Below, piece after piece: positions 54,561 to 64,000 of a DNA stretch of 64,000 nt. The stretch comes from an uncultured Gemmatimonadales bacterium (lineage in GTDB: Bacteria; Gemmatimonadota; Gemmatimonadetes; Gemmatimonadales; Gemmatimonadaceae). The stretch spans positions 512,001 to 576,000 of the forward strand of contig CAWBZV010000002.1 of assembly GCA_963793305.1 (NCBI GenBank), in the 5' to 3' direction. Numbering within the stretch: position 1 is the first letter of the stretch; each line of letters starts with the position of its first letter. Below the pieces are notes generated by a model, which saw only the letters and a program-made list of their open reading frames with translations, did no database searches and was not told the DNA's origin. A program made the position numbers and the translations under genes.

Positions 54561-54703
54561 GGCAGACGAAGGTGCCGATCGGACCGTCGAGCGGCAATGC
54601 CGAAGAAATGGGACGATATTCCCCCAACCCTGCCGAAGGCAGGCTCGCAACGCAACCGATAGCCCGAAGGGCCGAGTCCGAAGATGCAACCCCCAGGGGA
54701 GTC

Positions 54704-57700
54704 ATGACCGCCCAGCCCGACCGCGCCACTTACGGCCTTCGGCCCGACATTCTGTCGCAGTGGGAGACGCTCGCCCAGTCGCTCTCCAGCATCGCCCCCA
54801 CGGCGGCGCCGGCGATGATCATTCCCTTGGTGATCGCCGCCGCGGGACGGTCGGCGTGGGTGTCGTTCGTCGTCGCGACGATCGCCATGGCCCTCGTCGC
54901 CGCTCACGTCAACGTGTTCGCCCGCGACTCGGCTACGCCAGGGTCCCTGTACGCGTTCGTCCGCGGCGAATTCGGGTCATGGGTGGCGCTGCCGGCGGGT
55001 TGGGCGCTCCTCGTCGCCTATATCGGGACGGCCGCCGCGGTGACCGGCGGGATCATCCAGTATGCGCAGAATCTGGTCGGGATCGCTGGTACCGGCGTCG
55101 CGATCCTGCTGATCATCCTGTCGATTGGCCTGTCGGCCATGCTCGCCTATCGCAACGTGGAGCTGTCCACGCGATTCATGCTCTGGATCGAGTGCGCGTC
55201 GGTGGCGACGATCGTGCTCTTGTTCGTGATCCCGACGCGCGCGCATCCGTTGAGCTGGGATCCCACGCAATTCACGCGGTCGGTGTTCGCCGTCACGCCG
55301 GTCGGCGCCGGCCTCGTGCTCGCGACGTTCGCGTTCGTCGGGTTCGAGAGCGCCACCGCGCTCGGCGCCGAAGCGAAAGATCCATTGACGACCATCCCCC
55401 GCGCGGTCATGGGGACGGCGCTGATTTCTGGTGCGTTCTTCGTGTTCTCGACCTACGCCGAGGTCGACGCGGTCGGCTCGAAGGTCGATCTCCTGACGGG
55501 GACGCAAGCGCCACTGCAAGTCCTCGCGACCCTCAAGGGGCGATCGTGGGTGGGGCCGATCGTGTCGGTTGGCGCGATCATGAGCTTTTTTGCGTGCGCC
55601 ATGTCGTGCATTACGGCGGCCGCGCGCACGATGTTCCTCATGGGCGCGCAGAAGGTCTTGCCATCGCGGTTGGGACAGGTGCACGCACAACATCAGACGC
55701 CGTCCATGGCGGTGATCGTATCCAGCATCGCCGCCGCCGTTCCCGCCTTAGCCTTGGCCGCGCGACATGTCAGCGCGTTCGATCTGTACGGGTGGCTGGC
55801 CACGATCGCGACGTACGGATTCCTCGCGGCGTATGTGTTCGTGACGGTCGCCGCGCCGATATATGAATTGCGCCGACGCACGCTGACGGTGCCAAAGGCC
55901 GGCCTCGCGGTCGTGACCGTGGCGTTTCTCGTCTGGGCGTTCGTCGCCAGTCTGCCGCCGGCAACCTCCACCGGTCCCGAGCGATGGCTCGCGCCCATCT
56001 TCTTCGCGCTGATTGTGGCCGGCTGTGTGTATTGCATGGCACGCCGCCGCCTCATCGTTGCCGGCGCGATGATCGTGCTGTTTGCCACTCCCGCTCGTGC
56101 ACAATTCACGCGGGAGCGGAGCTGGCTCAAGATGCCCGATGGCGTTCGTCTGGCGGTCACATACTGGCGACCGACGGGAGCGAAAGACAAACTCCCCGTG
56201 CTGCTCGAGTATCTGCCGTATCGGAAAGAAGACTCGTTCTATCAGCGCGATTACCCACTCTACAGCTGGTTCGTACGCCATGGCTTCATCATGGCCAAGG
56301 TCGACATTCGAGGTACGGGATCGTCCGAGGGACATCTGCCGGACCGCGAGTACTCCGAGCAGGAGATGAAAGACGCCGACGTCATTATCGATCAGCTCAG
56401 CCGGCTGCCGGGGTCGAATGGCAACGTGGGCTTGTGGGGAATCTCCTGGGGCGGATTCAACGCCATCCAGATCGCCATGCGCCACCCACCGGCGCTCAAG
56501 GCCATCATATCAGTGGATGCCACGGACGACCTCTATCACGATGACATTCACCAGATCGACGGCGTGCTCCACATCGATCAGTACGCTCTCCAGATCGACC
56601 ACGAGAACGGCCTCCCCGCGCCGCCCGCGTACGCGATCGACTCGGCGTACTTTCACAATCGGTTCGATACATCACCATGGTTGCTCACCTATCTGCATCA
56701 TACAGTCGACGGACCATGGTGGCGCTGGAACTCGCTGCGTTTTCAGTACGACAAGCTGACGATTCCGTGCTTTCTCATAGGTGGTCTGCTGGACGGCTAC
56801 CGCGATGCCATCCCGCGCATGCTCGACAGTGTGCACGCACCGATCAAGGCGATCGTCGGGCCATGGAACCACACCTTTCCCGATGATGCCGTCCCGGGAC
56901 CCGCCATCGAGTGGCGCGGTCTCGCCGTCAAATGGTGGAAGCATTGGTTGGAGGGCGAGGCCAACGACATCATGGACGGACCGCGGCTCACCGTCTTTGT
57001 CCGCGACTCGGTGCCGCCGGACGTATCCCTCGCCATCAGTCCCGGGCATTGGCGCGGGGAAGACTGGCCGATTGCTCGCACGCAATGGCGCACGTGGTAC
57101 CCGAACCCCAGGCATGAGCTTGGCGAAGCAGTTGGAGCGCGAGATTTCGGCTGGTACGATTGGTTGGCTTATACCGCGGGCGTTGGCACGGCGGTTCCAG
57201 TCTGGTGGAATGATGCGACGGGCGACCAGGCGGCCGATGACGGACAGAGCTTGACCTATGACAGCAGGGAGCTGCGGGAGCCGGTCGAGATCATCGGTTT
57301 TCCGCGCGTGCGCTTGCAGGTTCGGCCCGCCGCCCCGATCGTCGATTGGACCGTGCGGCTCGAAGACGTCTTTCCCGATGGGCGCGTCGCGCTCGTGACC
57401 GGGGTGCTCCAGAGCGGCGCCCAATGGTCATCGCGCCTCGATCCGGCGCCACTCGCACCGGGCTTGCCGTATGTGATCAAGACGCCGCTGCACTTCACGA
57501 CGTGGACCTTCCGACCGGGACACAAGATCCGCCTGGCTATCGCGAACTCGCAGTTCCCAATGGCGTGGCCGACGCCGTACCCCACGACGACATCATTGGA
57601 AGTCAATGACGGCAGCACCACCCTCGACCTTCCGGTCGTCCCGTCAGCACCGAACGCACAGGTGCCGGTCTTTGCGGCGCCCCAGCCCCATGACCAGGCA

Positions 57701-58066
57701 CCGGATGCGCGAACGTTACAGGAGACGGGCTATCCCGGCGCCATCGTCACCCACAACGTCGTGGCAAAAACCACGGCTGTTGATTTTCTTACACGCTTCT
57801 CGTACCAGATCCTCGACCGCCGAATCGAGAACATCGAGAAGGAGCATTACGAGACACACGATGACGACCCGGCCCACTCGAGTTTCGTCGGCGACGAATC
57901 CCATCACATATGCCGCCCGAAGCGCTGCCTCGTGCTTCGCACCGGAATAGACGTGCAGTCGGATAGCACGACGTTGCGTGTTCGCGTAACCCGGCGACTC
58001 GAGGAGAACGGCCGGCTCGTGCGCACGAAGATCTGGACCGACACGATCCCGCGGGGGATCAACTAG
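54704..58066 (+). CDS. APC amino-acid permease fused to CocE/NonD (S15) hydrolase
   Basis: AQSLSSIAPT, FVGFESA..LGAEAKDP..TIPRA; then MPDGVRLA, YLPYRK, DIRGTGSSEG, GISWGG, GPWNH; no stop between the two halves. Confidence 0.85.
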   Translation: MTAQPDRATYGLRPDILSQWETLAQSLSSIAPTAAPAMIIPLVIAAAGRSAWVSFVVATIAMALVAAHVNVFARDSATPGSLYAFVRGEFGSWVALPAGWALLVAYIGTAAAVTGGIIQYAQNLVGIAGTGVAILLIILSIGLSAMLAYRNVELSTRFMLWIECASVATIVLLFVIPTRAHPLSWDPTQFTRSVFAVTPVGAGLVLATFAFVGFESATALGAEAKDPLTTIPRAVMGTALISGAFFVFSTYAEVDAVGSKVDLLTGTQAPLQVLATLKGRSWVGPIVSVGAIMSFFACAMSCITAAARTMFLMGAQKVLPSRLGQVHAQHQTPSMAVIVSSIAAAVPALALAARHVSAFDLYGWLATIATYGFLAAYVFVTVAAPIYELRRRTLTVPKAGLAVVTVAFLVWAFVASLPPATSTGPERWLAPIFFALIVAGCVYCMARRRLIVAGAMIVLFATPARAQFTRERSWLKMPDGVRLAVTYWRPTGAKDKLPVLLEYLPYRKEDSFYQRDYPLYSWFVRHGFIMAKVDIRGTGSSEGHLPDREYSEQEMKDADVIIDQLSRLPGSNGNVGLWGISWGGFNAIQIAMRHPPALKAIISVDATDDLYHDDIHQIDGVLHIDQYALQIDHENGLPAPPAYAIDSAYFHNRFDTSPWLLTYLHHTVDGPWWRWNSLRFQYDKLTIPCFLIGGLLDGYRDAIPRMLDSVHAPIKAIVGPWNHTFPDDAVPGPAIEWRGLAVKWWKHWLEGEANDIMDGPRLTVFVRDSVPPDVSLAISPGHWRGEDWPIARTQWRTWYPNPRHELGEAVGARDFGWYDWLAYTAGVGTAVPVWWNDATGDQAADDGQSLTYDSRELREPVEIIGFPRVRLQVRPAAPIVDWTVRLEDVFPDGRVALVTGVLQSGAQWSSRLDPAPLAPGLPYVIKTPLHFTTWTFRPGHKIRLAIANSQFPMAWPTPYPTTTSLEVNDGSTTLDLPVVPSAPNAQVPVFAAPQPHDQAPDARTLQETGYPGAIVTHNVVAKTTAVDFLTRFSYQILDRRIENIEKEHYETHDDDPAHSSFVGDESHHICRPKRCLVLRTGIDVQSDSTTLRVRVTRRLEENGRLVRTKIWTDTIPRGIN

Positions 58067-59622
58067 TGGCATTCTGTCCGCCGCCGTGCGAACCAGCCAT
58101 CGCGAACACGGCGGTGTCCCGCGAACCCCAAGGCGCCCGCTCCACTGGCTGGATCCTCGCCGCCACGATCCTCGGCTCGAGCCTCGCGTTCATCGACGGC
58201 ACGGTCGTCAGCATTGTCCTGCCGGTCATGCAGCGCGAGATGCACACGACGATCGTCAACGCGCAGTGGGTCGTCGAGATTTACCTCCTCTTCCTCTCGT
58301 CGCTGATCCTCGTCGGCGGCGCGGTCGGCGACCGCTGGGGCCGCGAGCGCGTGTTCACCGGCGGCATCATCGCGTTCGGCCTGGCATCCATCGGGTGCGC
58401 GCTCGCGCCGAACATCAACTGGCTCATCGCGTGGCGAGCCCTGCAAGGCATTGCCGCCGCATTTCTCATCCCCGGCAGTCTCGCGATCCTCGGCGCCGCG
58501 TTCTCGCCCGGCGAACGAGGCCAAGCCGTCGGCACGTGGTCGGCGGCGACCGCCATCGTCACGGCCGCCGGTCCAGTCCTCGGCGGTTGGCTCGTCGAGC
58601 ACACCTCGTGGCGATGGATCTTCGCGCTCAATGTGCCGCTGGCCGCCGCGGTCGTCGCCATCATGGTGTTCGAGGTGCCATTCTCCGCGCCCGCGAAAGT
58701 CACCCGCTCGCTCGATTGGACCGGCGCCGCGCTCATTACCGCCGGGTTGGGCGGCATCGTCTTCGGGCTTATCGAATCACCGCACTACGGTCTCGGCAGC
58801 CTGAGAGTCGTATTGAGCCTGATCGTCGGCGTCGCACTGGTCGGCGCGTTCATCGTCGTCGAGGACAGGGTCATCCGACCGCTGGTGCCGCTCATGCTCT
58901 TTCGCTCGCGAGCGTTCAGCGGCGCGAATCTCATCACCCTGTTGCTCTACGCCGCACTGGGCGGCGCGCTCTTCTTTTTGCCCTTTGATTTGATCCAGAT
59001 TCATCATTACACGGCCACCGCCGCGGGCGCGGCGCTGTTGCCGTTCGTCATTATCGTGGCGCTCCTGTCACGCACCGCGGGCGAGATGGCTGAACGGGTC
59101 GGCATCACGCTCCCCCTCACGCTCGGCCCGCTCATCGCGGCCGTCGGGATCGCGACGTTTGCGCTGCCGGGCGCGGGCGGCGGCTACTTCACGACGTTCT
59201 TTCCCGGGATGGTGCTCCTCGGCCTGGGGATGGGGATCACGGTCGCGCCTCTTACGACGGCGGTGCTCTCATCCGTCGATGACGAGTTCGAAGGCGTCGC
59301 CTCGGGAGTGAACAACGCCGTCGCGCGCCTTGGCGGCCTCCTCGTCATCGGCGTCCTCGGGATCATCATGGTCCAGCGCTTCTCGACGCAATTGGATGCG
59401 GGGCTCGCCCATGCGGGCGCTCCCACGCAGGTCCGCCAGGCGTTGGGCGCTCAAGCATTGCAGCTGGCGGCGATCACGCCGCCGCCAGCCTACGAGCACC
59501 TCGTCACGGCAGCGGCCGTCTCGGCATTTCGGGGCGCGATGATCGTGTCGGCGGTGCTCGCACTGGCTGCCGCTGGGGTGGGGGCCACCACTTTGCCTCC
59601 GCGGCGCAGCCGCCGCCGGTAA
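58066..59622 (+). CDS. DHA2-like MFS transporter
   Basis: FIDGTVV, GDRWGR, GPVLGGW, WRWIFALNVP, SGVNNAVAR. Confidence 0.92.
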   Translation: MAFCPPPCEPAIANTAVSREPQGARSTGWILAATILGSSLAFIDGTVVSIVLPVMQREMHTTIVNAQWVVEIYLLFLSSLILVGGAVGDRWGRERVFTGGIIAFGLASIGCALAPNINWLIAWRALQGIAAAFLIPGSLAILGAAFSPGERGQAVGTWSAATAIVTAAGPVLGGWLVEHTSWRWIFALNVPLAAAVVAIMVFEVPFSAPAKVTRSLDWTGAALITAGLGGIVFGLIESPHYGLGSLRVVLSLIVGVALVGAFIVVEDRVIRPLVPLMLFRSRAFSGANLITLLLYAALGGALFFLPFDLIQIHHYTATAAGAALLPFVIIVALLSRTAGEMAERVGITLPLTLGPLIAAVGIATFALPGAGGGYFTTFFPGMVLLGLGMGITVAPLTTAVLSSVDDEFEGVASGVNNAVARLGGLLVIGVLGIIMVQRFSTQLDAGLAHAGAPTQVRQALGAQALQLAAITPPPAYEHLVTAAAVSAFRGAMIVSAVLALAAAGVGATTLPPRRSRRR

Positions 59623-59746
59623 AAGGTCAGCCTCCGTCCTCGTCAGAGGACGAAAGGACACCCTTAAGCTCCGCTTAACAGCAGAGATTCGCGGTCGTCT
59701 CCTGGAACAGTGGTTGCCTTAACTACGGCTTTCAGGAGGTGACATA

Positions 59747-60427
59747 ATGCATCAACGAATGTGGGTCGCCGCACTGGGCGCGATGGCGCTGTCGGCGTCC
59801 GTCGCGAGTGTAGCGAGTGCCCAGTATCGTGTGCGATACGGGTACAATTACGACGCGTTCGACAATGAAGCAGTGCACATCGGCATCTCGGGAGGCGCCG
59901 CCGTCCCGACTGGTCCGTACGCCGAACGATTCAATCCGGGTTGGAATGTCGATGGGAACCTGGCGATTCCGCTCGATCGTCGCTCACCGATCTGGCTCCA
60001 GTTCGATGTTGGGTACTCGCGCTTCGGCGTCAATTCACAGACGCTGCAAGACTTCAATGTGAATACCGGATTCAGCAGCATGCTCTCCGGTACCGCCAAT
60101 CTCGTGATTGGCCTGACCAATGATCCGCGCGCCCGCGTGGTGCCGTATCTCATCGGCGGCGGCGGTGTGTATTCGCGGTATGTCGAGCTCGATAACTACC
60201 AGAACTCGGGCGTGGCCTGCGATCCGTTCTTTGGATTCTGTCAGAGCTACAATCAGGCCGTGCCCGTCCTGACACGGACCGAGACCGTCGGCGGTTTGGA
60301 TGGCGGGGCCGGACTGCGCTTCAAGATGCGACGGGTGAATTTCTACCTTGAGGCGCGGTACGAAACAGCTTTCACCAACACCACGAATACGGCGTTCGTT
60401 CCCATCAGATTCGGCATTGAATTCTGA
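59747..60427 (+). CDS. Outer-membrane beta-barrel protein
   Basis: AGGAGG RBS, signal peptide, PYLIGGGG, C-terminal FGIEF. Confidence 0.85.
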   Translation: MHQRMWVAALGAMALSASVASVASAQYRVRYGYNYDAFDNEAVHIGISGGAAVPTGPYAERFNPGWNVDGNLAIPLDRRSPIWLQFDVGYSRFGVNSQTLQDFNVNTGFSSMLSGTANLVIGLTNDPRARVVPYLIGGGGVYSRYVELDNYQNSGVACDPFFGFCQSYNQAVPVLTRTETVGGLDGGAGLRFKMRRVNFYLEARYETAFTNTTNTAFVPIRFGIEF

Positions 60428-60451
60428 TAGCACCTCGATAGGTTGTATAGC

Positions 60452-60505
60452 ATGACGCTGCGCTGTTGTTGTCTCGCCCCCCGCATCCCAGAGACTCAGG
60501 CGTAG
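60452..60505 (+). CDS. Putative Cys-rich leader peptide MTLRCCCLAPRIPETQA
   Basis: ATG ACG CTG CGC TGT TGT TGT...GCG TAG, upstream of a terminator and the sulfite reductase. Confidence 0.8.
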   Translation: MTLRCCCLAPRIPETQA

Positions 60506-60526
60506 CGCGCCCCGTGTACACCCGTG

Positions 60527-60558
60527 CCCGCCGGAGTTTTCTCCGGCGGGTTTTTTTT
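60527..60558 (+). terminator. Attenuator terminator hairpin
   Basis: CCCGCCGGAG-TTTT-CTCCGGCGGG followed by T8 and immediately the ATG. Confidence 0.9.
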
Positions 60559-62160
60559 ATGCCTGAAACGACTGAAACACCGACACAGCGCATCGAGCGC
60601 ATCAAACGCGAGAAAGCGTCCTGGTCGATCCTGGACGATATTCGTCGCTACTCCACGCTCGGCTACGACGCCATTCCGGACGACGACCTGAACGTCCGGT
60701 TCCGTGCGTGGGGCCTGTATACGCAGGGCGATGGCCTTGGCGTGCATGGCGAAGCCACGCGCTTTTTTATGATGCGCGTGCGGACGCCCAACGGCATCGT
60801 GACGTCGGCGATGGCGCGTACGATCGCCGATCTCTCCGATCGCTATGCGCGCGGTTCGCTCGACATCACGAATCGACAGAACTTCCAGCTGCATTGGCTT
60901 CGCATCGAGGACATCCCGACGGTGTGGGATGCTCTCGCGGCTGTCGGTTGGACGAGCATGGGCGCATGCGGCGACAACACGCGTACGGTCACGGGTTGTC
61001 CGCTCGCCGGCGTCGACGCCGCGGAGATCGCCGATGCCTCGCCGATTGCCGTGCAGATCGACCAGCGGATGAATGGCAATCCGCTGTACGCGAACTTTCC
61101 GCGCAAATTCAAAATCTCGGTCACGGGCTGCGCGCATTGGTGCACATATCCCGAGATCAACGACATTGGATTGACGGCCGTGCGACGCGGCGACGAGATC
61201 GGGTTCAGCTTGCGTGTCGGCGGCGGTCTTTCGACCCGCCCCCGACTCGGCGATCGACTCAACGTCTTCGTGCCGTGGGACGCCGTGCCCGATGTCGTCG
61301 ACGCCGTCGCCGCCATCTTCCGCGACTCCGACGAGTTGCGCGTGCAGCGCGCGAAAGCGCGTATGAAATTCTTATTTCTCACGCATGGCTGGACGCCCGA
61401 TCGATTTCTGGTCGAGCTCACCCATCGGCTAGGCTACGCGCTCAGCCCCGCGGTCCCAGAAGTGCCGCCGGACGGCTCATTCCGCGATCACGTCGGGGTG
61501 CATCCGGAAAAGAGTGGGGCATCATTCTACGCGGGATTCACGGTCGCGTCGGGTCGCATCTCTCCGGATGCCCTTCGTTCTCTCGCCTCGCTCGCGGACG
61601 AATATGGCACTGGATCGCTGCGCACCACCGCGATGCAGAACGTGGTCGTGCTCGGCATCCCGGCGGAGCGGCTCGGCGCATTTCAACGGGCGGCTGCGCG
61701 GAGCGCGGCGCCACCACTGGAAGGGTCGCCGTTCCGTCGTGGGATACTCGCGTGCACCGGTTCCGAGTATTGCAAGCTCGCCGTGGCCGAGACGAAGCGG
61801 TTCAGCCTGGATCTCATACCGGAGCTCGAGCGCCGACTCCCGGGATTTCAGTCGCACGTGAAGATTTTTGTCACGGGCTGTCCGAACGCGTGCGGCCAAC
61901 ATTGGATAGCGGATATTGGGCTGCAGGGCGCCGCGGACGGCTTTGACATATTCATCGGTGGCGGGCTCGGCGCGACGCCGGGATTCGCCGACCGGATCGG
62001 AGTCCGCGTCGCGGCAGCCGAGACGGCGGATGCATTGGAGACGCTGTTCCGCGAGTACCTGGGCGGCCGTGCAGGCGACGAGACGTTCCGAGCATGGACC
62101 GCACGCGTCGGCCCAGATTACGTCAAGACCGCGCTCGCGATGGCTCGATCACAACCATGA
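60559..62160 (+). CDS. Siroheme/4Fe-4S sulfite (or nitrite) reductase
   Basis: MMRVR, TNRQNFQ, ACGDNTR, PRKFK, CTGSEYC, GCPNACGQH; the Cys leader favours an assimilatory sulfite reductase. Confidence 0.9.
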   Translation: MPETTETPTQRIERIKREKASWSILDDIRRYSTLGYDAIPDDDLNVRFRAWGLYTQGDGLGVHGEATRFFMMRVRTPNGIVTSAMARTIADLSDRYARGSLDITNRQNFQLHWLRIEDIPTVWDALAAVGWTSMGACGDNTRTVTGCPLAGVDAAEIADASPIAVQIDQRMNGNPLYANFPRKFKISVTGCAHWCTYPEINDIGLTAVRRGDEIGFSLRVGGGLSTRPRLGDRLNVFVPWDAVPDVVDAVAAIFRDSDELRVQRAKARMKFLFLTHGWTPDRFLVELTHRLGYALSPAVPEVPPDGSFRDHVGVHPEKSGASFYAGFTVASGRISPDALRSLASLADEYGTGSLRTTAMQNVVVLGIPAERLGAFQRAAARSAAPPLEGSPFRRGILACTGSEYCKLAVAETKRFSLDLIPELERRLPGFQSHVKIFVTGCPNACGQHWIADIGLQGAADGFDIFIGGGLGATPGFADRIGVRVAAAETADALETLFREYLGGRAGDETFRAWTARVGPDYVKTALAMARSQP

Positions 62161-62692
62161 TGAACCGCAGGGGGCCTTTCCCCACGTTCGCGTACCGATG
62201 TGGCCGATCGGCGCGAAAAACCAGAGAGTCCCCCCGCGCCATGCTATGCGTGTCGGCGCCGAGCGTCAGCGTGAGACTCCCGGCGAGGGCGTAGAGCATC
62301 TCGCGTGACCCGGGTGGGTGCGCGGCGCCATCGTATCCATCGCCTGGCGCGATGCGCCAATCCCATACCTCGGACTGATCCGATCCGATCAGCAGCGTCG
62401 CGACGCTGCCCGGAAGCCCGTGCCACAACTCGGCGGCGTCGGCCGCGCGCACGACGCGCACGGGCGGCGACTCGTCGACCTCGACCAGCCGGGGGACGGA
62501 GACCCCGAGCGCATCGGCAATGCGGCACAGGGTCGCAATGCTCGGGTTGGTCCGCGCTTGCTCGATTTGCACGAGCATGCCTTTGCTGACGCCCGAGCGT
62601 GTCGCCAGCGTGTCGAGCGTCCACGACCGCCGCGTGCGCAGCGCGTGCACCGTGCGCGCGATCGCCGCCGCGATGGCGTCAGGGTCGGTCAT
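62123..62692 (-). CDS. XRE HTH + cupin transcriptional regulator (SutR/PuuR-like)
   Basis: WTLDTLATRSGVSKGMLVQIEQARTNPS; cupin H..G.RE...PHRYAN. Confidence 0.92.
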   Translation of the reverse strand: MTDPDAIAAAIARTVHALRTRRSWTLDTLATRSGVSKGMLVQIEQARTNPSIATLCRIADALGVSVPRLVEVDESPPVRVVRAADAAELWHGLPGSVATLLIGSDQSEVWDWRIAPGDGYDGAAHPPGSREMLYALAGSLTLTLGADTHSMARGDSLVFRADRPHRYANVGKGPLRFIMVVIEPSRARS

Positions 62693-62698
62693 CGAGCC

Positions 62699-62733
62699 TC
62701 AGTATACTGACCATAAATGTCAGTATATATTAC
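62699..62733. promoter_or_regulatory. Divergent promoter with palindromic operator
   Basis: Perfect TCAGTATACTGA (62699-62710) and a partial second copy TCAGTATAT, overlapping both -10 boxes. Confidence 0.75.
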
Positions 62734-62737
62734 CGCC

Positions 62738-63571
62738 ATGGCCCCACTGCTCGCCATACTCGCCTCGATCTGCTACGGCGGCGCGGACTTCCTCGGCGGG
62801 CTCGCCAGCCGAAAGAGCTCGGCGCTCGCGGTCGCCGCCGTCTCACAGTTCGTGGGTCTCGCGCCCCTCGCGATCGCGATGCTCGTGGCGGGCCCGAGTA
62901 CGCCGAGCACCGCCGACCTCGCGTGGGGCGCTGCCGCCGGCTTAGCGGGAGCCGCGGCGCTCGCCCTTTTTTTCAAGGCGCTCACGCTCGGACGCATGAG
63001 CGTGATGGCGCCCGTTGCTTCGGCGACGGGCGCCGCGGTCGCCGTGCTCATTGGCTTCGCTCTCGGCGAGCGACCCGGGCCCCTCGTGCTCGCCGGGTTC
63101 GCACTCGCGGTCGTGTCGATCGTGCTCGTCGCTCAAGACCGATCGGGCCCCGACGGGTCGACCGAGCGTGGCGTGCTCACCGCGCTCGCGTGCGGCATCG
63201 CGCTCGGCGCGTGGTACACGTGCTTGCACCCAACGTCGATCGCCGCCGGTCTCTGGCCACTGGTGATGGCCCGAGCGGTATCGCTGCCGCTCCTGGCTCT
63301 GGCGACCCGATTGAGGGGCCGGTCGCTGCGCCTCCCGAGAGACGTGATGGCTATCGCGCTGCCGTCGGGCACGCTCGACATCATCGCGAACGTCTGCTAT
63401 CTGATCGCCGTGCGACAGGGTATGCTGAGCGTCGTCGCGACGCTCGCCTCCCTCAACCCCATCGTGACCGTCGCCCTCGCCTGGTCGGTCCTGCACGAGC
63501 GCCTGCGCCCCGCCCAGTATCTCGGACTCGCCTTGGGCATCGCCGCGATGGCGATGATCTCATTGGGCTAG
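62738..63571 (+). CDS. EamA/DMT family transporter
   Basis: YGGADFLGG, GRMSVMAPV, GERP, LASLNPIVT, LHERL. Confidence 0.9.
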   Translation: MAPLLAILASICYGGADFLGGLASRKSSALAVAAVSQFVGLAPLAIAMLVAGPSTPSTADLAWGAAAGLAGAAALALFFKALTLGRMSVMAPVASATGAAVAVLIGFALGERPGPLVLAGFALAVVSIVLVAQDRSGPDGSTERGVLTALACGIALGAWYTCLHPTSIAAGLWPLVMARAVSLPLLALATRLRGRSLRLPRDVMAIALPSGTLDIIANVCYLIAVRQGMLSVVATLASLNPIVTVALAWSVLHERLRPAQYLGLALGIAAMAMISLG

Positions 63572-64000
63572 GTAGGGCTCCATGTGGACTAATACGCCCT
63601 GCACGAAAGGCGCGACCGCCAGGATCGCGCCCTTGACCGAGCCGCTGAGCTCGTGCGCGTCATGAAGCGACATGTGCGGGTCCGCCTGCACATGTATCTC
63701 GACGAAGTATCCGAGTCCCGACCGTCGCATTTTCAAGTTCTCGATCATGCGCACGCCGGCGGTCGACATCGCGGCCTCGCGAACGCGATCGATCAGCGCG
63801 GGACTCGGCGCGGTGTCCATGAGATCGGCGAGCGCCGGCCGCAGCATGTGCGCGCCGTTGTACGCGACGATGCCGGCGGCGACCAGCGCTGCCCAGTCGT
63901 CGGCAGACTCCCATCCGCGTCCCCCGATCACGTGGCCACCGATCAGCGCGACCGCGATCCCGATAGACGCCGCGCCCGAGCTGACGGCGTCGCTCAGGTG
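63560..64000 (-). CDS. Cation diffusion facilitator (FieF-like), C-terminal part
   Basis: HLSD, ADLMD, VEIHVQADPHMSLHDAH, VLVHMEP; truncated by window edge. Confidence 0.88.
   Translation of the reverse strand, partial: HLSDAVSSGAASIGIAVALIGGHVIGGRGWESADDWAALVAAGIVAYNGAHMLRPALADLMDTAPSPALIDRVREAAMSTAGVRMIENLKMRRSGLGYFVEIHVQADPHMSLHDAHELSGSVKGAILAVAPFVQGVLVHMEPYLAQ

Follow-up and report, generated by a model that had tools for sequence, protein, structure and literature searches.

The classical leader-peptide attenuators are the enterobacterial trpL, hisL, thrL, leuL and ilv leaders, together with the actinobacterial trp and ilvB leaders. The mechanism by which they act is summarised in the available text of 10.1101/834739 and PMC1262725. 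The leader described here lies ahead of a siroheme sulfite/nitrite reductase gene in the window, a 64,000-nucleotide stretch of the genome of an uncultured Gemmatimonadales bacterium (contig CAWBZV010000002.1), and is very probably a ribosome-mediated, leaderless, terminator-type attenuator of the classical kind that senses charged tRNA-Cys. It shares with the classical systems, as far as the accessible text of these sources describes them, a short open reading frame (ORF) with a run of codons for the product, an overlap between antiterminator and terminator, a U-tract and a place at the operon head; the genes downstream likewise make or use the sensed amino acid (sir, rhodanese, cysC and osmC-cysNC-cysD operons). 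It differs from them in sensing cysteine, in its predicted leaderless transcript and in its hosts, which are Gemmatimonadota and Acidobacteriota, and in the genus of this bacterium the U-tract runs right up to the start codon of the gene under control. Every testable defining feature of a classical attenuator is present in the leader, the antiterminator as a computed structure.

In the literature found, terminator-type cysteine attenuation has been predicted and the cysteine system that has been tested is translational. The prediction is uORFC-8-2 (Brewer et al. 2021, PMC8632094), a tandem-Cys upstream ORF (uORF) with an intrinsic terminator before cysS in Rhodobacterales. As described in the accessible text, it resembles the present leader in its tandem Cys codons, the stem that contains them, the terminator with a U-run and the proposed mechanism, and it too is a prediction only. 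The same description sets it apart as alphaproteobacterial, placed before cysS and dominated by UGC, with two Cys at positions 14-15, whereas here the genes concerned are sulfite reductase, rhodanese, cysC and osmC-cysNC operons, the Cys codons are codons 5-7 and UGU is dominant. The tested system consists of the leaderless polycysteine small ORFs of mycobacteria, a cysteine-responsive 'Cys ribulon' acting on translation (Canestrari et al., 10.1101/834739), and the available text of that work states uORF attenuation for cysteine to be previously undescribed. These small ORFs are similar in being leaderless, in their consecutive Cys codons, in their place ahead of sulfur genes, including one for thiosulfate sulfurtransferase, and in occurring at several loci per genome. 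They differ in that, according to the same text, the Cys tract sequesters the Shine-Dalgarno (SD) sequence and there is no termination, whereas here an intrinsic terminator is conserved. Cys leader peptides have also been predicted in Actinobacteria, with no conserved terminators in the accessible part of that report (PMC1262725), and the available text of PMC13236596 cites cysteine control as translational. The leader does not qualify as a member of either the mycobacterial translational system or uORFC-8-2.

A literature search, mostly outside subscription papers and supplements, gave no such report for Gemmatimonadota, Acidobacteriota or sulfite reductase. The predicted attenuators of Acidobacteria are nearly all unassigned in the accessible text of PMC2965389, and the supplements of PMC2965389 and PMC8632094 list many predicted attenuators that may bear on novelty. 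The original prediction, made from the letters of the window, knew of no terminator-based Cys attenuator in this lineage. The earlier prediction before cysS in Rhodobacterales, as the available text of PMC8632094 gives it, makes the novelty narrower than had been implied.

The leader and its computed folds

The 17-codon uORF with its three TGT codons lies exactly where the original prediction had placed it, as does the TAGGTT hexamer ahead of its ATG (Table 1). The proposed helix 1:2, pairing 60456-60464 with 60499-60507 (9 bp including 2 G-U), formed with pair probabilities of 0.84-1.0 and was extended in the computed fold by pairing of 60471-60475 with 60491-60495, giving a minimum free energy of -21.8 kcal/mol for 60452-60520. 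Nine of ten positions paired in the antiterminator 2:3, as claimed, and the terminator stem was confirmed with its T8 ending at the reductase ATG, although it counts 11 bp with the closing G-U and not the 10 first given. The terminator hairpin has a stability of -23.9 kcal/mol and is the only terminator-like site within 59600-60700. The whole ribosome-free leader, comprising helix 1:2 and the terminator, reached -46.2 kcal/mol (z = -4.66), and none of 200 shuffled sequences was equally stable. The genome contains 56 ATG-started short ORFs with CCC, and a downstream T-run was found only at this uORF. Segment 2 of the uORF, and not the start region of the reductase, is the pairing partner of the Cys codons. 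Rfam families, riboswitch and T-box models (S-box, Cys T-box) included, gave no match at E up to 5 in 58000-64000.

We infer translation of the uORF, stalling, termination and cysteine dependence in the following form. Transcription would start at or next to the uORF AUG, to judge from the promoter geometry, and the upstream gene may contribute further transcripts by read-through. As long as cysteine is plentiful, the ribosome would reach the stop codon and cover segment 2; should it have left, or never have loaded, segment 2 would be held by helix 1:2 instead. In either state the terminator is predicted to form, and transcription would end at T8 before the reductase AUG. Under cysteine shortage, stalling at codons 5-7 would place the ribosome over segment 1, leaving the RNA from 60491 onward free, and a 16-bp antiterminator would form before the terminator 3' arm is made, allowing RNA polymerase to read into the reductase gene.

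The folds computed for these states are consistent with such a switch. When segment 1 was masked and the nascent RNA ended at 60540, a 16-bp interrupted antiterminator formed between 60491-60509 and 60523-60540 (-19.4 kcal/mol). In a codon-by-codon ribosome walk along this leader the arm was sequestered by -12.3 kcal/mol with the ribosome at codons 5-9, by -2.5 kcal/mol with it at the stop and by -6.0 kcal/mol in the ribosome-free RNA. All six genus leaders that were folded had a stall-dependent antiterminator, with -17.1 to -26.8 kcal/mol in the stalled state and -2.5 to -8.5 kcal/mol at the stop. Helix 1:2 was retained in all six, with a G-U to A-U change in L121. In L022, the most distant genus leader, ACTC:GAGT is replaced by GTCC:GGAC with retention of the helix, which is a compensatory change. 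The peptide MTLRCCCLA is retained in L019-L021, L113-L115, L121 and L157.

Table 1. Positions of the leader elements and the genes on either side (window coordinates)
Feature	Position	Strand	Remarks
-35-like hexamer TTGAAT	60417..60422	+	within last codons of upstream gene; 16 nt above TAGGTT
-10-like hexamer TAGGTT	60439..60444	+	7 nt ahead of uORF ATG; predicted leaderless start
Leader ORF (uORF), 17 codons, MTLRCCCLAPRIPETQA	60452..60505	+	stop at 60503-60505
Three UGU (TGT TGT TGT) cysteine control codons, codons 5-7	60464..60472	+	
Segment 1, partner of segment 2 in ribosome-free RNA (helix 1:2)	60456..60475	+	computed fold
Segment 2, uORF end and stop codon; 5' strand of predicted antiterminator	60491..60509	+	
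Segment 3, antiterminator 3' strand	60523..60540	+	overlaps terminator 5' arm (60526-60536) and loop
Intrinsic terminator: 11-bp stem, 4-nt loop, T8	60526..60558	+	stem 60526-60551; T8 60551-60558
Siroheme sulfite/nitrite reductase (NirA/SirA type), 533 aa	60559..62160	+	stands alone here; most likely sulfite reductase
Upstream 226-aa gene	59747..60427	+	strong SD; no terminator of its own

Conservation of the module across homologous loci

The nearest named homologues are from Gemmatimonadaceae. Of 376 genome loci and 501 metagenome loci that encode relatives of the reductase, the best 80 of each were taken as homologous loci; the two sets overlap, and related loci within these 160 are not independent. 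The module was defined as a short ORF with CC or at least three Cys, followed 35-85 nt past its stop by a hairpin and U-tract. It was present upstream on the coding strand in 90 of the 160 loci, from Gemmatimonadota and Acidobacteriota, compared with 10, 11 and 6 of 160 in the control regions (upstream reverse strand and the two downstream strands), and the same upstream test for nine other amino acids gave between 2 and 18. A stricter filter retained 77 loci, from records of both phyla, in which the first gene behind the leader was sir (53), rhodanese (12) or cysC (12). In many of the other 83 the reductase lies within an operon or close to the end of a contig. As a prospective test, ten leader-negative loci, with none in 3 kb, were extended upstream, and in six of them a leader was found at a distance of 5.4-5.7 kb, heading an osmC-cysNC-cysD-cysC-cysH-tauE-sir or a rhodanese-led operon. 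The leader module goes with the first gene of the operon, whatever lies upstream. The full module is also present in a cultured organism, Terracidiphilus gabretensis S55 (L096).

The switch was analysed in 69 unique leaders, that of the window included; L120, without a clean terminator by eye, was left out. The hairpin of L032 was mis-parsed, and this leader was counted among the 69 and left out of the swap control (68 leaders); L045, with a frame slip, was left out of the Pfam scan. In 68 leaders the sequence that pairs best with the terminator 5' arm begins upstream of the uORF stop, and in all 69 it ends at most 12 nt from that stop; the antiterminator pairing beat dinucleotide shuffles at p<=0.05 in 30. 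Mean pairing of the arm was 0.72 with the ribosome at the Cys cluster, 0.29 with the ribosome at the stop and 0.65 in ribosome-free RNA. In a clade of 24 Gemmatimonadota sequences the uORFs vary but segment 2 within them hardly changes, and it repeats the terminator 3' arm. The original prediction had proposed conservation of Cys codons and helices, and helix covariation, in relatives as its check. Conservation was found, both in the excess of the module over the control regions and in the antiterminators of the six genus leaders; covariation was limited to the compensatory change in L022, with none within the clade.

Codon choice in the leaders differs from that in their reductase genes. The ratio of UGU to UGC was 234:150 in the 69 leaders and 63:600 in their reductase genes, and UGU accounts for 2123 of 8936 Cys codons across 3184 long ORFs of this genome. 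A single tRNA-Cys(GCA) gene was found in the genome, and with this tRNA the codon UGU is read by wobble, which may sharpen cysteine sensing. In 21 of 21 clade leaders checked, segment 2 uses the Arg codon CGG, whereas CGG makes up 205 of the 971 Arg codons of the corresponding reductase genes.

A TTG-16/18-yAnnnT-5/8-start geometry was found in 25 of the 69 leaders, this one included, compared with 93 of 14938 background starts, a rate at which about 1.5 leaders would be expected. The TTG of the -35-like hexamer is retained in 8 of 8 aligned genus leaders; a sigma-70 promoter scan did not pick out TTGAAT at 60417-60422. Genome-wide, yAnnnT peaks 6 nt before starts (117 against about 20, n = 983 genes), and the uORF is without an SD (-3.6 kcal/mol). 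Together the promoter geometry, the yAnnnT peak and the missing SD support the leaderless transcript that had been suggested. The SD signal of the whole genome is barely above that of shuffles and is accompanied by the yAnnnT peak, suggesting that many genes of this genome may be leaderless.

Several of the loci carry further Cys-rich ORFs. L032 contains two Cys leaders with terminators in tandem, 450 and 250 nt upstream of the reductase match. Shortly after the reductase, L068/L187 have a Cys-rich ORF with a hairpin; L070 has one too. In L080 (Telmatobacter bradus) the Cys-rich uORF MMASPLCRLCCCFYAHG, about 170 nt before the reductase match, was missed by the module filter; its U-tract is weak. 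An OsmC-like gene is the first behind a Cys leader in several sulfate-assimilation operons (L201-L203, L206, L207, L040, L216), a place hinting at a sulfur-related role for this gene.

Evidence against, rival explanations and meaning

Several results weigh against a cysteine attenuator of this kind or against its tie to sulfite. Across the leaders, pairing of the arm in free RNA is near the stalled value, so that helix 1:2 is not general. The proposal that stalling frees segment 2 for read-through agrees with the computed folds, but without helix 1:2 as a general requirement; the folds suggest that the general switch is mainly the ribosome covering segment 2, with helix 1:2 an addition in this genus. 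The swap control gave modest support: the cognate arm outdid 95% of the distant arms in only 17 of 68 leaders, the median rank was 0.22, and this leader ranked at 0.125. The clade alignment has 90.9% of pairs formed, but these are nearly invariant and show no double changes. Taken alone, the antiterminator of this leader is not beyond chance (p 0.139 against 200 shuffles), and the equilibrium fold favours the terminator even with segment 1 masked once the 3' arm has been made. Since the terminator is the more stable structure at equilibrium, the switch would have to be kinetic and act during transcription. Four of the ten extended loci had no leader in the DNA read, one same-genus genome (G002/G069) included, in which the reductase follows a PALP-family gene. 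The reductase scored below every NCBIfam cut-off, and its best named matches were nitrite reductases (ferredoxin-nitrite reductase).

Translational attenuation, alone or atop termination, would also make use of the 3:4 hairpin, which ends 7-8 nt before the reductase AUG and could block ribosome loading. No spacer separates T8 from the reductase ATG, the hisG and ilvD leaders of this genome abut their genes likewise, the ilvD 3' arm reads AAGGAGG, and the tested mycobacterial precedent is translational and hides the SD in the available text of 10.1101/834739. However, only 8 of the 69 leaders have a start at most 12 nt from the U-tract (median 31 nt), yet all have the hairpin and U-tract; six of these eight belong to this genus. 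T8 after an 11-bp GC stem is the signature of an intrinsic terminator, and the SD-like GGCGG in the terminator 3' arm scores -6.0 kcal/mol, a score that 26% of 983 genes and 21% of shuffles also attain. The 3' arm was accordingly rejected as a true reductase SD, its score being not above background, and translational attenuation is considered very improbable; a second, translational lock by the hairpin over the ribosome-binding region is possible but unsupported. It is very unlikely that the Cys-rich peptide is itself the sensor or product, as a metal- or sulfide-binding mini-protein or as an arrest peptide for metal, sulfane sulfur or oxidation. Many homologous leader peptides do hold 4-9 Cys in CC and CxC patterns, and in one clade Arg-Pro occurs repeatedly some 7-9 codons ahead of the stop, always in one frame, but the Arg-Pro codons coincide with the antiterminator strand, and the bias at codon level towards UGU and CGG points to a constraint on RNA or tRNA. 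Across clades the peptide varies in length (about 17 to more than 50 codons) and sequence with only the Cys content kept, and a like architecture with His, Thr or Leu/Val codons precedes the matching operons in this genome.

The hairpin could also be the plain, constitutive terminator of the upstream 226-aa gene, with an incidental uORF and a reductase expressed by leak-through. The upstream gene is without any other terminator, and this would agree with an antiterminator that is not significant in this leader alone; but the module is found where the sulfur operon begins, irrespective of the upstream gene, the Cys enrichment is specific to that position, and within the genus the uORF is better conserved than the DNA just upstream of its start. 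Such an origin is extremely unlikely. In a wider reading, tentative and somewhat doubtful, Gemmatimonadota and Acidobacteriota run sulfur assimilation by a terminator-based cysteine ribulon. In the genus this would comprise sulfite reductase and rhodanese, in genomes that mostly gave no sign of sulfate activation, as a cysteine-gated thiosulfate/sulfite route to cysteine, with one hairpin locking both transcription and translation because the U-tract ends at the start codon. If the terminator-type cysteine attenuator itself holds, it would explain how sulfur assimilation is controlled in two abundant soil phyla that genetics has hardly reached, the leader would serve as a marker flagging sulfur genes of unclear role (rhodanese, OsmC-like, uroporphyrinogen-III synthase-like), and the idea would be directly testable in the cultured host T. 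gabretensis S55. The mechanism is a textbook one, and the gain lies in its reach and testability and not in a new principle.

The reductase, its neighbours and other leaders of the genome

The reductase contains the Pfam domains PF01077 and PF03460. Its best match in the PDB was 1ZJ8 (E 1e-86), titled NirA, which we take to be a sulfite reductase; a literature search did not confirm this. The substrate is most likely sulfite, and the enzyme is called a likely sulfite reductase because the neighbouring genes decide: cysC, cysH, sat, tauE or rhodanese neighbours were present in 64 of the 160 loci, or 104 when cysG was counted. Searches of this genome, which is 92% complete, gave no PF01507 (cysH/cysD), PF01747 (sat), cysC or tauE; among five genus relatives (67-95% complete) PF01507 turned up in one, hence in one of six genomes counting this one. 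The genome has cysK and a cysG-like gene. A Cys-controlled reductase and rhodanese without sulfate activation would fit the use of thiosulfate or sulfite. Both cysS (L107/L108, G000:C2:232656-234078) and the cysG-like gene (L209/L210, G000:C5:150690-151380) match as two pieces in different open frames, perhaps through an assembly error or a frameshift.

The upstream 226-aa gene had no Pfam or NCBIfam match, and the impression from its sequence is of a putative outer-membrane beta-barrel. Its SD duplex has -16.0 kcal/mol, and since the gene lacks its own terminator, its transcription would be expected to continue into the leader. Two soil metatranscriptome runs (word shares 0.07 and 0.05) gave low-depth RNA contigs of relatives that cover this gene and end at 60464 and 60479, at differing places and not at the terminator, and are uninformative on expression, start and termination; none of the contigs from these runs lay properly on the reductase. 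Frameshift coupling of the uORF to the reductase was considered and rejected. Here the frame of the reductase continues open across the leader for 36 codons, which it does not do in G005 (open frame 552 aa), where the uORF and the reductase also stand in a different frame relation; the open frame was taken as chance. Elsewhere in the window, the domains of an amino-acid permease and of a CocE/NonD hydrolase share one 1164-codon open frame at 54572-58066, which may be a fusion or two genes in frame.

A scan of 904 terminators in this genome for upstream leader ORFs identified His, Thr and Leu/Val leaders before hisG, homoserine dehydrogenase (hom) and ilvD, with 44-53 nt between stop and U-tract, and classical attenuation is a habit of this organism. 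No Trp leader was found before its trpE-like gene, and no Cys leader was seen before cysK, cysS (terminator scan) or the cysG-like gene. A second Cys leader, MRRETVTFCCATANLRPRRHT (G000:C3:1346347-1346478; L211:1480-1611), has the leaderless-type promoter arrangement TTGACA-18-TAGTCT-5-ATG and a terminator and precedes a two-domain rhodanese/sulfurtransferase; its RNA family differs from that of the reductase leader. The terminator scan missed it because it has only two Cys. It was a weak profile match (E 0.065) confirmed by reading the sequence, and is retained in at least four of five genus relatives. The profile, derived from the 24-sequence clade, was used for sequence alone, the RNAalifold consensus structure being wrong (6 pairs between segments 2 and 4), and it matched 12 of 120 family genomes at 14 places, with Cys content partly built into the profile. 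Genes behind the matches include rhodaneses, an OsmC-like gene and a uroporphyrinogen-III synthase-like gene.

The His leader MQTTLRHHHHAHRHGPTGRGALVREWMMG, with a terminator and T7, lies directly before hisG (G000:C3 ~303410-303556, L193), and a 7-codon ORF overlaps its start by TGATG. The Thr-rich leader and terminator lie before homoserine dehydrogenase (G000:C3 ~1375050-1375208, L195). The Leu/Val leader and terminator before ilvD (G000:C3 ~64300-64447, L194) have the promoter TTGACA-16-TAGGTT, and the AAGGAGG in the terminator 3' arm stands close before the ATG, making this leader a candidate for joint control of transcription and translation.

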